Origin: an uncultured Spirochaetota bacterium
GTDB taxonomy: Bacteria; Spirochaetota; Spirochaetia; DSM-27196; DATKUC01
Direction of reading: 5' to 3'
NCBI GenBank assembly: GCA_963832675.1
Contig: CAWHUY010000034.1
Coordinates: 77,716 to 141,715, forward strand
Length of the DNA: 64,000 nt
The notes beneath the pieces were generated by a model. The model saw only the letters and a program-made list of their open reading frames with translations, was not told where the DNA came from and made no database searches. Of this stretch, positions 79 through 13,564 are shown piece after piece; position 1 is the stretch's first letter, and each line of letters begins with the position of its first letter. A program made the translations under genes and the position numbers.

Positions 79-1599
79 CTACGTTCCGGCGGCGCTTTGC
101 TTCTGCCTCCCGGATTGTCCCCCAAGCACTTCGATCAATTCGAGGTACCTTCCATAGCGCTCCTGGTATATCGCGCTCTCACGGTCCGCCGGTTCGTAGC
201 GGCCGCCCGGCCTGACCATTGCCGCCGCCGCCTGGGGAAGTCCGCTGTGGAGTCCGGTGCCCACTGCGGCAATCGCCGCCGCCCCCAACGCTCCAACCTG
301 CGTTGCGCGGCTCGTCTCTATCGAAAGCCCGGTGATGGCACTGAACAGCCTGCACCATGCGGGGCTGTTTGTTGCGCCGCCTGAAAGCACCGCACTCTGC
401 TTGCTCATGCCGTTGCGCCGGAGTATATCGAGGTGCTGCCGGTGGGCGAAGACAACCCCTTCGTAGATCGCATGGGCCAGGTGGCGTGCGTCATGCTCCG
501 GGCGGATACCGGCGAAACAACCCCCGACGTCAGGCGAGAGGTGCGACGGATAGAGAAAAGGCAGATAAAACGGATCGGCCGACTGCACGGTGTGTGCGTC
601 GATCTCATGGTTCATTCTGTGGTAGATCTCCGAGGTAGGGGAGGTCGGGTCGTGGCGCCTCATCACCTGAGTCACGAACCATTCGAGATTGCATGCCGAC
701 GTGGCGCTCGACTCGACGAAAGCGAAATGTGCCCCATCGGCTCCCAGAGAACACTTAACCGTCGATTCTGCGGGAAGAAGGCTGCGCTCGAACGCCGTAT
801 TTATGTTCCAGGTGCCGGCAATCATACTGTAGCGGCTTTCGTCGTAGACTCCGCCTCCGGCAGCGCAGGCAATGACGTCAAACAGTCCGGCGGTGACCGG
901 TGTCCCGACTTTCAACCCGGTCTCATCTGCCGCACGCAGCGTCACCGTTCCCACAGTTTCAGAGCTTCGATGGAGATTCGGCAACTTCTCGAACGCGTCC
1001 GCGATGCCGAAAGTCTCCAGGATCACCTTGTCGTAGGTTCCGCTCAAGAGATTCATGAAACCGCAATTGCTCGCATCGGTGACCTCCCCGGAGGGTTCGC
1101 CGGTGAGCCTGTAGGTTGTCCAGTTCTTGGCTGAAAGCACCCACCGAATCCGGGTATAGGTCTCAGGATCATGCCGTTTGAGCCACGCGAGTTGCGGCAC
1201 CGGCTGCCCCGCCCACGGATGGTGCCTCGTTCTTGCGTAACAGGAGACTCCTTCGGCCTGCCACCGGTCGATGATCGACTGTGCGCGGTGGTCCATCGAC
1301 GAGAACGCTCGTCCGACCGGATCTCCCGCTGCATCAATGGAGTAGAGTCCGGCTCCATGCCCGCTCACGCCGACGGCGGCTATTGCATCCGCTCCAATTC
1401 CGGCGGTTTCGACTACCTGGCGAATCACGGATGCGGTGCGTCTCCACTGTTGGGTCATGTCGATTTCGCTTCGATCCCCGGCATCAACCACCAGAGTCTT
1501 CTCGAGCGCCGTCGCCGCCTCGACTCCGTCGAGCGTAAAGAGAACTGCCTTGGTGGCTGTGAGCCCGTTGTCAATGCTCAGAATCACGGGGCCAGTCAT
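79..1599 (-). CDS. FGGY-family carbohydrate kinase (L-xylulose/3-keto-L-gulonate kinase LyxK-like)
   Basis: N-terminal IDNGLTATKAV phosphate-1 motif, GLFDV, AGTWNIN, LSGGATNS, GALGAA; 506 aa. Confidence 0.85.
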   Translation of the reverse strand: MTGPVILSIDNGLTATKAVLFTLDGVEAATALEKTLVVDAGDRSEIDMTQQWRRTASVIRQVVETAGIGADAIAAVGVSGHGAGLYSIDAAGDPVGRAFSSMDHRAQSIIDRWQAEGVSCYARTRHHPWAGQPVPQLAWLKRHDPETYTRIRWVLSAKNWTTYRLTGEPSGEVTDASNCGFMNLLSGTYDKVILETFGIADAFEKLPNLHRSSETVGTVTLRAADETGLKVGTPVTAGLFDVIACAAGGGVYDESRYSMIAGTWNINTAFERSLLPAESTVKCSLGADGAHFAFVESSATSACNLEWFVTQVMRRHDPTSPTSEIYHRMNHEIDAHTVQSADPFYLPFLYPSHLSPDVGGCFAGIRPEHDARHLAHAIYEGVVFAHRQHLDILRRNGMSKQSAVLSGGATNSPAWCRLFSAITGLSIETSRATQVGALGAAAIAAVGTGLHSGLPQAAAAMVRPGGRYEPADRESAIYQERYGRYLELIEVLGGQSGRQKQSAAGT

Positions 1600-1615
1600 C
1601 CCGCTCTCACTCCTC

Positions 1616-2677
1616 TCATGCGATGAATCTCTTCACCGCCTCGTGAAAGACCGGTTTATTCACGATGAATCGCGAATCACCGCCCTCCCAGAGCTTCACC
1701 ATTTCAGCGGCAAGCCTTTTCGGGGAATTGAAAAATGCGTCGTTGGAGCCGCCCGCCATATGTGGCGTCAGCGTCACGTTTTCCAGGGACACGAGAGGAT
1801 ACTCTTTTCCCGGGGGTTCGGTGTCAAAAACGTCAAGCGCTGCGCCGGCGATCCGCCTGTCACGCAATGCTTCGTACAGAGCCTTTTCATTCACCAGCGC
1901 AGAACGCGAGGTATTGATAAGATATGCGGTCGGTTTCATCCGCGCAATGAGTTTTCCGTCCACGAGGTTCTCGGTCTCCTTCGTAAGACGGGCGTGTACG
2001 GTAACGAAGTCCGCACGCGACATGAGCTGTGCGAGGTCCACAAGCTCGACTCCCGCCGGCGGCACCTTCACGAACGGATCGTAGCCAAGAATCGTCATGT
2101 CAAAGCCGGAGAGTCTTTTCGCTACCTTCTGGCCAATTTCCCCCAGACCGATTATGCCGGCGGTCTTCCCGGGCAGGTCGGGGATGTTTCCGGAGTTCGG
2201 GTACACGCGAATCCAATCGCCGTTCTTCAGCCCGAGGTGTCCGCGCGCAATGTTTCGGCACTCGCTGATCAGAACGCCCACGGTGAAGTCGGCCACTGCA
2301 TCGGAGTTTCTTCCCGGTGTATTGTAGACCAGGATCCCACGCTCGGTGGCGTGATCGACATTGATATTTTCAATTCCCGCGCGAAGTACACCAATTACCT
2401 TGAGGTTGGCGCAAGCGTCGATCAGTTTCCGGGGAACCGGACAGAACTCGGTGATCAGAATATCGGCCTCGCGCGCCGCTTCGTAGATGTAGGCGGGCGG
2501 ATCGTAGGCTTCACTTCCGTTCTTTTCGACCAGGAGGTTGACGTTCTGCAGCTCCTGGAACCCGTCGAGCGTCCAGTCCAGCGTGTGAACCTCGACTCCA
2601 CGTTCGGCAAGGGGCGCAAACCCGGTGCGAATGTGTTCGTGGGGGATGAACAGTTCCCCGATACCGGTAAGTCTCAT
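1616..2677 (-). CDS. D-isomer-specific 2-hydroxyacid dehydrogenase (SerA/PGDH-like)
   Basis: RAGIENIN, GIIGLGEIG, LINTSR, ALDVF-EP, TPHMAG motifs; start moved to ATG 2677 with GAGGAGG RBS (ORF-track extension to 3124 overlaps the SDR). Confidence 0.88.
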   Translation of the reverse strand: MRLTGIGELFIPHEHIRTGFAPLAERGVEVHTLDWTLDGFQELQNVNLLVEKNGSEAYDPPAYIYEAAREADILITEFCPVPRKLIDACANLKVIGVLRAGIENINVDHATERGILVYNTPGRNSDAVADFTVGVLISECRNIARGHLGLKNGDWIRVYPNSGNIPDLPGKTAGIIGLGEIGQKVAKRLSGFDMTILGYDPFVKVPPAGVELVDLAQLMSRADFVTVHARLTKETENLVDGKLIARMKPTAYLINTSRSALVNEKALYEALRDRRIAGAALDVFDTEPPGKEYPLVSLENVTLTPHMAGGSNDAFFNSPKRLAAEMVKLWEGGDSRFIVNKPVFHEAVKRFIA

Positions 2678-2688
2678 TGAATTCCTCC

Positions 2689-12598: not shown

Positions 12599-12614
12599 TC
12601 CCTATTTCTCCTCT

Positions 12615-13256
12615 TTATGCGTCATCCCGGCTGGCCGGTATTGATCGTCCCGGGAGACCTTCCAGCCGCGCTTCGACGATCTTCCGTCCCTCGAGCACTT
12701 CGGCTTCTTCACCCGATATATAGACACGGCCGAAACGACCGAATCCCTGGACGTCGATGATCTTGATCTTGGCGGTCTTTTCCGCCTCGTTGGCAGCGAA
12801 GTAGGCGTACCCGGCCGGCTCGAGCTCGAGCACGTAGAGCGTCTCGCCCCGCAGCAGCATGTTCCCGTAGCGGGTCTTGTTGATGAGCTGACAGTGATGG
12901 TCGGACATGTTCTTGATCAGCTGGCTGGTCAGAAGCCGCGGTTTCAGGCTGTCTTCTTCATTCTTGGAAAGCGCCTTGAGAACCGACTCTCCCGCCATCC
13001 GCGTGTCGCCCTGGCTGTCGGAGTGCACCTCCATCATTCCGTAGGAGCGTTCAACCACCTGGAGTCCCGGCGTCACGTTGGTGGCCTTAAGCGCAATGTC
13101 CATCAACCGGTTTATCTCGATCCCTGGTGCAATCTCGATGACGCAGCATGCCTGAAACGCGACCGGGAAATATCCCCGGGATATCGTCGACAGGTAGGAG
13201 GCCATCTGCGGTTGCAGGGAGTCGAGAACGACGTAGGTTCGCAAATCAATTGCCAT
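12615..13256 (-). CDS. BMC shell trimer (tandem domain, CsoS1D/CcmP-type double-stacking BMC-T)
   Basis: LRTYVVLDSLQPQ, EIAPGIEINR, QVVERSYG, PAGYAYFAANEAEK, GRFGR; 213 aa. Confidence 0.9.
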   Translation of the reverse strand: MAIDLRTYVVLDSLQPQMASYLSTISRGYFPVAFQACCVIEIAPGIEINRLMDIALKATNVTPGLQVVERSYGMMEVHSDSQGDTRMAGESVLKALSKNEEDSLKPRLLTSQLIKNMSDHHCQLINKTRYGNMLLRGETLYVLELEPAGYAYFAANEAEKTAKIKIIDVQGFGRFGRVYISGEEAEVLEGRKIVEARLEGLPGRSIPASRDDA

Positions 13257-13261
13257 GTTCG

Positions 13262-13564
13262 TTACTCCTTCCGATCGCTTCGGCCGAGCGGCAGAGCGCC
13301 GTCTACGGAGGCATGCGGCCGAGGAATGACGTGCGTCGAGACTATCTCACCGACTTTCTCGGCGGCGCGCGCGCCGGCGTCAACCGCTGCCCGACAGGCG
13401 GCAACGTCTCCCCGCACAATCGCAGTGACGTATCCGCCCCCTATCTGCTCGAACCCGATCAAATCAACTCTGGCTGCCTTCACCATTGCATCCGCCGCTT
13501 CGGTCATCGCGGCGAATCCCCTCGTTTCGATCATGCCGAGGGCGTCAAACATCGTTTCTGCCAT
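13262..13564 (-). CDS. BMC shell hexamer (BMC-H), first gene of the BMC operon
   Basis: [51 protein letters not shown]. Confidence 0.96.

Follow-up and report, generated by a model that had tools for sequence, protein, structure and literature searches.

What does a sugar-phosphate-utilizing (SPU) metabolosome consume, and where does its substrate come from? The question is raised by a bacterial microcompartment (BMC) locus in a 64,000-nucleotide stretch of contig CAWHUY010000034.1 (positions 77,716 to 141,715; assembly GCA_963832675.1) from an uncultured Spirochaetota bacterium; the whole of this stretch is referred to below as the window. In the passages of Axen 2014, Sutter 2021, Dwyer 2024 and a Hodarchaeales preprint that deal with SPU compartments, DNA-derived deoxyribose 5-phosphate is assumed throughout, and the native substrate has never been shown (context in Dwyer 2024). 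The locus in the window is tied by gene linkage and by a shared promoter/operator to a mobile sugar cassette, and its acylating aldehyde dehydrogenase (AldDh) is possibly inactivated. In the account that we favor, with modest confidence, the SPU locus belongs to one regulon with this cassette, whose CUT2 importer lies at a second site, and the cassette would deliver a 2-deoxy-aldose phosphate to the aldolase DERA (DeoC).

The shell operon and the cassette operons begin with closely similar promoter/operator sequences. Near-copies, TTGACAAACGTCATGAATTATGTTAGAGT and TTGACAATTGTCATGTCATATGTTAGAAT, lie upstream of the first BMC-H gene and of the first short-chain dehydrogenase/reductase gene (SDR1). 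The 15-base pattern TTGACAANNGTCATG has four matches in the 3.88-Mb genome (G000), at 13675, 7404 and 33 of the window and at G000:C34:307031. These copies precede the first shell gene, SDR1, SDR3 and, 229 kb away, a sugar importer operon encoding an SDR, a Peripla_BP_4 binding protein, an ABC ATPase, two permeases and a 398-residue open reading frame (ORF) without a Pfam family. All three sites in the window are on the minus strand. P1 (13647..13675), upstream of the first shell gene and kept in the sister genome, consists of TTGACAAACGTCATG followed after a 17-nt spacing by TAGAGT. P2 (7365..7404) has TTGACAATTGTCATG, then TAGAAT, plus a second TGACAAACGTCA site, and P3 (19..33) has TTGACAATTGTCATG and stands before SDR3, a Zn-dependent alcohol dehydrogenase (Zn-ADH), SorC and EamA. 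The 12-mer core matches seven times in the window where 2.4 matches are expected, and 0 of 100 shuffles give seven. Two exact TGACAAACGTCA sites elsewhere in the genome (G000:C21:78407 and C22:4314) were set aside as chance because they are inside long ORFs and have no promoter boxes.

The same elements recur in other genomes. An identical 17-mer, TTGACAAACGTCATGAC, is found before SDR1 in an Anaeromyxobacter metagenome-assembled genome (MAG) and before the first BMC-H gene in the sister genome. The 12-mer core precedes the shell operons of the sister genome, of G003 and of G057, where it is beside a divergent SorC gene, as well as the importer of metagenome locus L196. Neither the core nor the palindrome TGACAANNGTCA was found in three paralogous SPU loci that have no cassette (L100, L101 and L103). 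The position of the palindrome over the -35 box and the conservation of the regulator in all cassette variants point to SorC as a repressor. We propose that a SorC-type repressor would bind TGACAANNGTCA, overlapping the -35 boxes of four promoters, and that import, cytosolic oxidoreduction and phosphorylation, and shell synthesis would be switched on together when the sugar or its phosphate is present. The cassette would supply a 2-deoxy-aldose phosphate, most likely deoxyribose 5-phosphate, and AldDh would trap acetaldehyde as acetyl-CoA inside the shell. Judged from these promoters, the shell operon, the cassette operons and the distant importer form one predicted regulon, and the switch shared with the import and conversion genes suggests that the compartment burns an imported sugar rather than DNA debris. 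An earlier note on this DNA had claimed co-regulation of the two gene sets, and TTGACAANNGTCATG before both of them bears this out.

Linkage in other genomes provided the second line of evidence. The UroD-fold protein of the cassette was used to scan one genome per species, yielding 58 loci, among which only the sister genome, a MAG (locus L002), has shell genes beside the UroD-like gene; its gene order is the same as that of the window. In the Anaeromyxobacter MAG the order is UroD-FGGY1-SDR2-HADH-FGGY2-SDR3-ZnADH-DeoC-SorC-SDR1-cupin-ABC-LacI-EamA, with a DeoC of 220 residues between Zn-ADH and SorC and an ABC importer of the CUT2 type. No match to the shell family PF00936 was found in this 4.9-Mb genome, so here the cassette carries its own DERA in a genome without shell genes. 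The cassette's AllA-like cupin occurs in 3 of the 81 genomes of the window's order, all in the window's genus and all beside an SPU core. One of these cores (L102, on G003:C70) is followed by AldEpim-SDR1-cupin-SDR2-HADH-FGGY2-SDR3-ZnADH-SorC. Scanning metagenomes with the cupin gave 80 loci, of which 33 span 6 kb or more. In ten contigs a cupin of at least 59% identity is accompanied by other genes of the cassette; upstream sequence is available for eight, and in seven of these (L120, L124, L129, L130, L131, L140 and L164) DeoC, RpiB or shell genes lie directly upstream. The order in those contigs is core, AldEpim, IclR, UroD on the opposite strand, SDR1, cupin, binding protein, ABC, FGGY2, SorC and FGGY1. 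Loci L195 and L196 show a third architecture, ending Rpe-SDR3-DeoC-BMC-H. The cassette, in our reading horizontally mobile, recurs beside SPU cores in three genomes of the genus and in seven of eight informative metagenome contigs; the link between sugar genes and SPU core proposed in the earlier note would have fallen had the genes never been found together with SPU loci elsewhere, and they are.

The SPU core itself is common in the order without such a partner. A BMC-T homologue is present in 28 of the 81 genomes, and 13 of 20 regions examined have the conserved order H-T-H-P-P-AldDh-P-P-(RpiB-DeoC); three of the 20 are of a class II aldolase type. G076 has an SPU core followed by a different cassette of FGGY, ROK, ABC and dehydrogenase genes. 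Paralogous second SPU cores with no feeder genes are found in L103 (G003:C52), L101 (G004:C61) and L100 (G005:C4). The shell proteins of these three are 87-90% identical, and two of the three are followed by a GAF-GGDEF gene. L115, L116 and L117 (G075, G009 and G056) are shell loci that combine AldDh with a gene of the class II aldolase family and continue into a CUT2 ABC transporter; they are PVM-like and not SPU. In L129 (3809-4668), the aldose epimerase beside DeoC matches in two frames, and the SPU core is reduced to SDR3, BMC-H and DeoC.

Profile searches of the window's proteins against Pfam and NCBIfam place every gene of the locus on the minus strand. The shell set comprises two BMC-H proteins (13262..13564 and 12290..12598; PF00936, 106 and 107 bits), one CcmP-like tandem-domain BMC-T of the double-stacking type (12615..13256; 213 residues) and four BMC-P vertex proteins (11970..12275, 11666..11965, 9933..10211 and 9661..9936; PF03319) that share 27-40% identity with each other. 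The BMC-T matches PF00936 weakly and reaches 271.8 bits over residues 1-207 with NF053796, below the cut-off of 340. DeoC is encoded at 8353..9258 with a likely start at Met30 (~9171), and it scores 268 bits with TIGR00126 against a cut-off of 117 and belongs to the deoC type of PF01791. The adjoining RpiB-family gene (9150..9689) overlaps the DeoC ORF, and the AldDh gene occupies 10221..11669. According to the main text of Dwyer 2024, every SPU locus has DERA and AldDh, the BMC-P number three or more, and an RPI bearing an encapsulation peptide complexes with DERA. Because DERA, at least three BMC-P and an RpiB gene beside DERA match these features, an AldDh gene is present although split, and BMC-H, BMC-T and BMC-P are all present in one locus, this is an SPU-type metabolosome locus, as the earlier note had classified it, and all of the genes listed there are present. 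No PF00936 shell gene was found elsewhere in this genome, which is 84.75% complete.

The locus departs from the class in several respects. The same text states that all SPU subtypes have at least one BMC-T(s), and the sole BMC-T of this locus is CcmP-like. PduS, PTAC and TPI were not found in the locus, and the combination of no PduS, no PTAC and a CcmP-like BMC-T fits no single subtype described in the main text of Dwyer 2024. A CcmP-like BMC-T is, on the other hand, reported there for SPU2 and SPU3, and PTAC is also lacking in the SPU loci described there with a double-stacking BMC-T.

DeoC shares ~60% identity with solved DERAs (263 bits to 8qps), and its lysine-bearing motifs, VKT-TGF and GVKASGG, are aligned with theirs. 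With Met30 as its start, the protein opens with an amphipathic stretch, LIDRIVSEVVARI, followed by a Gly/Ser/Pro linker, and the N-terminus of AldDh likewise has an amphipathic stretch and then a Gly/Ser/Pro-rich linker. As read from the residues, both N-termini look like encapsulation peptides. The RpiB-family protein, identified by Pfam, NCBIfam and motif alignment, has LDGAG where Clostridium thermocellum RpiB has ICGTG, so that the catalytic Cys is replaced by Asp. It is probably a scaffold rather than an isomerase, and the isomerization by RpiB that had been supposed does not agree with this substitution. An RpiB-family gene without the catalytic Cys beside DERA, like the core of DERA and acylating AldDh, is shared with SPU loci described previously (Axen 2014; Sutter 2021; Dwyer 2024, as far as their passages on SPU go).

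The AldDh gene raises a question of its own. It is present, as first noted, but it is not one ORF: NF011927 matches it in pieces, and a three-frame reading and alignment to the intact 481-residue ORF of L002, in a region with 87% nucleotide identity to the window, place extra single bases near 11431, 11315 and 10905. Capture of the aldehyde as acyl-CoA, part of the scheme first suggested, is impossible from the gene as assembled. No second acylating AldDh was found in this genome. AldDh is in one frame in L002 and in 16 of 16 relatives' loci. According to Dwyer 2024, SPU loci without an acylating AldDh were dropped from the curated set.

We put slightly better than even chances on the breaks being real. 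None of the insertions lies in a run of more than two identical bases. When the 69 sister ORFs that match the window at 70% identity or more are compared, splits are confined to AldDh and its antisense shadow ORF. Over 11.4 kb, the other coding length differences from L002 keep the frame or are compensated nearby. Three insertions in 1.45 kb far exceed the background of ~1 per 50 kb, and the genome has at least one other multiply shifted gene remnant. The other explanation, to which we give somewhat less than an even chance, is that the three insertions are assembly or consensus errors of the MAG and that the organelle is in full working order. Each of the three changes is a +1, the contamination of the MAG is 6.1%, and split genes do occur in the background (of 85 orthologous ORFs sampled elsewhere in the genome, 2 have one shift each). 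Compared with the sister, AldDh has a dN/dS of 0.10, inside the range of 0.01-0.20 seen for its neighbors, which gives no sign of relaxed selection; any inactivation would therefore be very recent. Public reads were also consulted. Two runs share 8-10% of the sampled words, and no RNA run is among those listed. The read contigs are short, with a depth of 2-5, and pieces with 0-1 differences cover 10991-11140, 11576-11726 and 11817-11967; none of those in the two runs bridges an insertion site. Two low-depth contigs of run X1 span 10902 and 11430 without the extra base, which speaks for errors in the MAG, but they are only ~95% alike and thus come from other strains.

Two further observations concern frameshifts elsewhere in this genome. 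Compared with G004, genes at G000:C23:185268-186651 and G000:C29:58862-59928 are each split by one frameshift. A gene of the purine/uridine nucleoside phosphorylase family at G000:C20:69100-69900, outside the window, has at least five frame changes and no counterpart at that place in G003, G004 or G005; it is probably a decaying remnant.

The cassette encodes the following enzymes. An aldose 1-epimerase family protein (7441..8331; PF01263) follows DeoC, as it does in several lineages. SDR1 (6586..7335) has an ORF extending to 7404, with a likely start at the ATG at 7335, and its homologues align from residue 24. It is followed by the AllA-like cupin (6069..6584; PF04115), the UroD/MtaA-fold TIM barrel (5031..6053), FGGY kinase 1 (FGGY1; 3448..5034), SDR2 (2689..3444; Pfam, NCBIfam), a D-isomer-specific 2-hydroxyacid dehydrogenase (2-HADH; 1616..2692) and the XylB-like FGGY kinase 2 (FGGY2; 79..1599), the last two identified by Pfam, NCBIfam and PDB searches. 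The 2-HADH ORF (1616-3124) overlaps SDR2, and its most likely start is near 2692. All kinases and dehydrogenases of the cassette score below the NCBIfam cut-offs, and no cassette enzyme reaches an equivalog cut-off. FGGY1 scores 265, 233 and 243 bits against cut-offs of 380, 528 and 471 for xylulokinase, autoinducer-2 kinase and fuculokinase, its best solved relative in a PDB sequence search being LsrK (177 bits), and FGGY2 scores 208 bits against the xylulokinase cut-off of 380. The PDB relatives of the kinases, Zn-ADH, 2-HADH, epimerase, cupin and UroD-like protein are generic or structural-genomics entries only.

The cassette defines two enzyme subfamilies without a known reaction, the UroD-fold protein and the AllA-like cupin. 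In the cupin alignment E71, H73, E78, H90 and H124 are invariant, and such conserved Glu/His residues are typical of metal cupins. The cupin model (pLDDT 88) has its best fold matches in AllA (TM 0.69-0.77, 16-20% identity) and DUF4867, and with the AllA NCBIfam models the protein scores 19-34 bits against cut-offs of 160-270. The UroD-fold protein, a distinct subfamily by Pfam, NCBIfam, alignments and fold search, scores 20.7 bits with the HemE model TIGR01464 (cut-off 303), and its fold matches UroD with a TM of 0.78 at 16% identity. Fold searches with the cupin and the UroD-fold protein confirmed the folds and indicated no reaction. A role of the UroD-fold protein as a decarboxylase is an idea only. 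Among candidate substrates, deoxynucleosides are unsupported, as the regulon has no phosphorylase or mutase, and so are unsaturated uronates or 2-keto-3-deoxygluconate, as the cassette has no PfkB kinase or KDPG aldolase; O-methyl sugars, which would involve the UroD-like protein and a corrinoid protein, are unsupported for reasons given below.

If the SPU and the cassette are mere neighbors, the compartment would handle deoxyribose 5-phosphate from DNA or nucleosides, and the cassette would be a polyol, aldonate or pentose operon ending in a pentulose 5-phosphate for the pentose-phosphate pathway. We find this doubtful, although several observations agree with it. Deoxyribose 5-phosphate from DNA is the published model, as set out in the SPU passages of Dwyer 2024, Sutter 2021 and Axen 2014, and four intact PNP_UDP_1 genes are present in this genome. 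The module of FGGY1 and the UroD-fold protein occurs mostly without DeoC and beside epimerase-like families: 36 of the 58 loci keep only this pair, which stands with class II aldolase-family, AP_endonuc_2 and E1 alpha/beta genes in Actinomycetota and Spirochaetes (L006, L010, L012-L014) and with SMP-30 lactonase, HAD and SIS genes in Chloroflexi (L019-L045). Mere neighborhood is, however, hard to reconcile with a 15-mer promoter/operator that precedes both the shell operon and the cassette operons, with a DeoC inside the cassette of a genome without shell genes, and with the joining of cassette and SPU core in seven of eight informative metagenome contigs. A nucleoside phosphorylase, a phosphopentomutase and a ribokinase are all absent from the locus, in agreement with the earlier note, and no DeoB phosphopentomutase was found in the genome as a whole at 84.75% completeness, which weakens the nucleoside route but does not exclude it.

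Delivery of a 2-deoxy-aldose phosphate by the cassette, the account that we favor, has its own difficulties, and the following points weigh against it. For no enzyme of the cassette is a reaction assigned that would give a 2-deoxy sugar. The UroD-FGGY1 pair is without DeoC in most of the 58 loci, which fits a pentulose phosphate as the end product. The cassette is missing from the majority of the order's SPU loci (L105, L106 and L110-L113, for example), L102 is without UroD and FGGY1, and L139, the one exception among the eight metagenome contigs, has no DeoC nearby. A generic promoter scan of the region gave 5 sites against 4.8 in shuffles, which is no excess; hits resembling terminators within genes were disregarded. 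The action of SorC as a repressor on its predicted operator TGACAANNGTCA is a pairing that we infer from sequence. Finally, the AldDh step is missing in this genome as assembled.

A stronger form of this account would make the SPU the last step of a mobile, SorC-controlled route that imports a free aldose and has no part in DNA scavenging, with the 2-deoxy-aldose phosphate made by undescribed chemistry of the SDR, cupin and UroD-fold proteins. We regard this form as unlikely. If it were true, the route, together with an encapsulated AldDh, would be redox-neutral, converting the sugar to acetyl-CoA and triose phosphate, and would be a functional alternative to phosphoketolase.

Flux in the reverse direction is very unlikely. 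AldDh would make acetaldehyde from acetyl-CoA as a sink for NADH, DERA would join it to glyceraldehyde 3-phosphate, and the product would be processed or exported by the dehydrogenases, kinases and EamA. Exporters are frequent in the EamA family, and the cassette has many reductase-type enzymes. On the other side, a high-affinity-type CUT2 importer with a periplasmic binding protein is in the same regulon and in nearly all cassette variants, and the kinases use ATP in the catabolic direction. According to Lee et al., 2018, the idea of reverse flux goes back to work on Atribacteria by Nobu et al., 2016.

A methylated sugar had also been among the candidates of the earlier note, and the corresponding proposal, that the UroD/MtaA-like protein is a corrinoid-dependent O-demethylase, is the least credible of all: MtaA (4ay7) is its best PDB sequence match and the MtaA/CmuA NCBIfam models match it weakly (85 bits against a cut-off of 235), but its fold is equally near the UroD decarboxylases, its H228-T-D230, invariant in 24 sequences, aligns with the H-i-C of MtaA, the family has Ser/Asn where the alignment reaches the next ligand region of MtaA, and no corrinoid-binding protein or activase is present in any annotated locus. 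The His-x-Cys...Cys residues of MtaA are its zinc ligands. The His-x-Cys zinc site and corrinoid partner that mark MtaA/MT2 proteins are thus both lacking, and with H-T-D in place of H-x-C and no corrinoid protein nearby, demethylation is unlikely.

Comparison with known systems places the locus in context. What sets it apart from SPU loci as published, besides the absence of a single-domain-stack BMC-T(s), is a SorC-controlled import and conversion cassette that shares its promoter/operator, and an AldDh that is broken here. The running text of Dwyer 2024 mentions no kinase, transporter, DeoR or SorC, and its supplements may show flanking genes. We found no published description of this cassette in a limited literature search that covered texts without their supplements.

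PVM metabolosomes, which act on L-fucose and L-rhamnose, use a class II aldolase and produce lactaldehyde. Like them, the locus would encode a metabolosome whose input comes from sugar isomerase and kinase reactions in the cytosol and whose encapsulated aldolase frees an aldehyde; it differs in having a class I DERA and, by prediction, acetaldehyde. PVM metabolosomes are mentioned in Sutter 2021, in the part that we draw on. With the deoR-dra region of B. subtilis the locus shares a SorC-family regulator that accompanies a DERA gene. There the effector of the regulator, which is encoded beside the DERA gene, is deoxyribose 5-phosphate, and the region has a nucleoside transporter and a pyrimidine nucleoside phosphorylase and no shell, kinase or dehydrogenase genes. 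The Lsr system for autoinducer-2 is similar in its CUT2 importer with Peripla_BP_4, FGGY kinase, SorC-family regulator and DeoC/LacD-family enzyme. Unlike in Lsr, FGGY1 falls far below the LsrK cut-off (233 against 528 bits), the aldolase is a true DERA and not the LsrF thiolase, and there is no LsrG.

The E. coli yiaK-S and ula operons encode a 3-keto-L-gulonate kinase, a decarboxylase and 3- and 4-epimerases. The FGGY1-UroD-fold pair, a widespread module without DeoC, recalls this route of kinase, decarboxylase and epimerase. In the Actinomycetota and Spirochaete loci the set of FGGY1-UroD, class II aldolase-family and AP_endonuc_2 genes resembles LyxK-SgbH-SgbE-SgbU, with the UroD-fold protein at the place of the decarboxylase. 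Unlike in yiaK-S/ula, both epimerase-like genes are absent from the locus in the window, and a UroD-fold decarboxylase would be an assumed role.

SPU metabolosomes are among the most prevalent types (Dwyer 2024, main text), and the linkage described here is in tension with the published view that they feed on DNA debris. It also provides handles for testing. The cassette comes with a regulator of its own, two kinases and an importer that depends on a binding protein; the operator linking it to shell genes is conserved across phyla; and one version of it, in a genome without shell genes, includes a DERA. If its AldDh is truly broken, the locus would be a case from nature of a metabolosome that is losing its sink for aldehyde.

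Position 79, the boundary given in the earlier note, is not the end of the operon. It extends past the left end of the window into the third SDR, Zn-ADH, the SorC regulator and the EamA transporter (L001:14074-17994). The intergenic gaps range from overlaps to ~105 nt, with a gap of 151 nt before SorC. Beyond EamA, the stretch L001:1967-14025 includes a beta-xylosidase-like GH43 gene on the opposite strand together with DUF6051, GNAT, a gene of the mannitol dehydrogenase family and a CUT1 ABC transporter, which make up a plant-polysaccharide or sugar-alcohol neighborhood. Both in metagenome variants of the cassette (L126:9791-11062) and at the importer site of this genome (L226:9923-11119, with the binding protein at L226:4892-6088), a conserved ORF of ~400-420 residues, belonging to no Pfam family, follows the ABC permeases.

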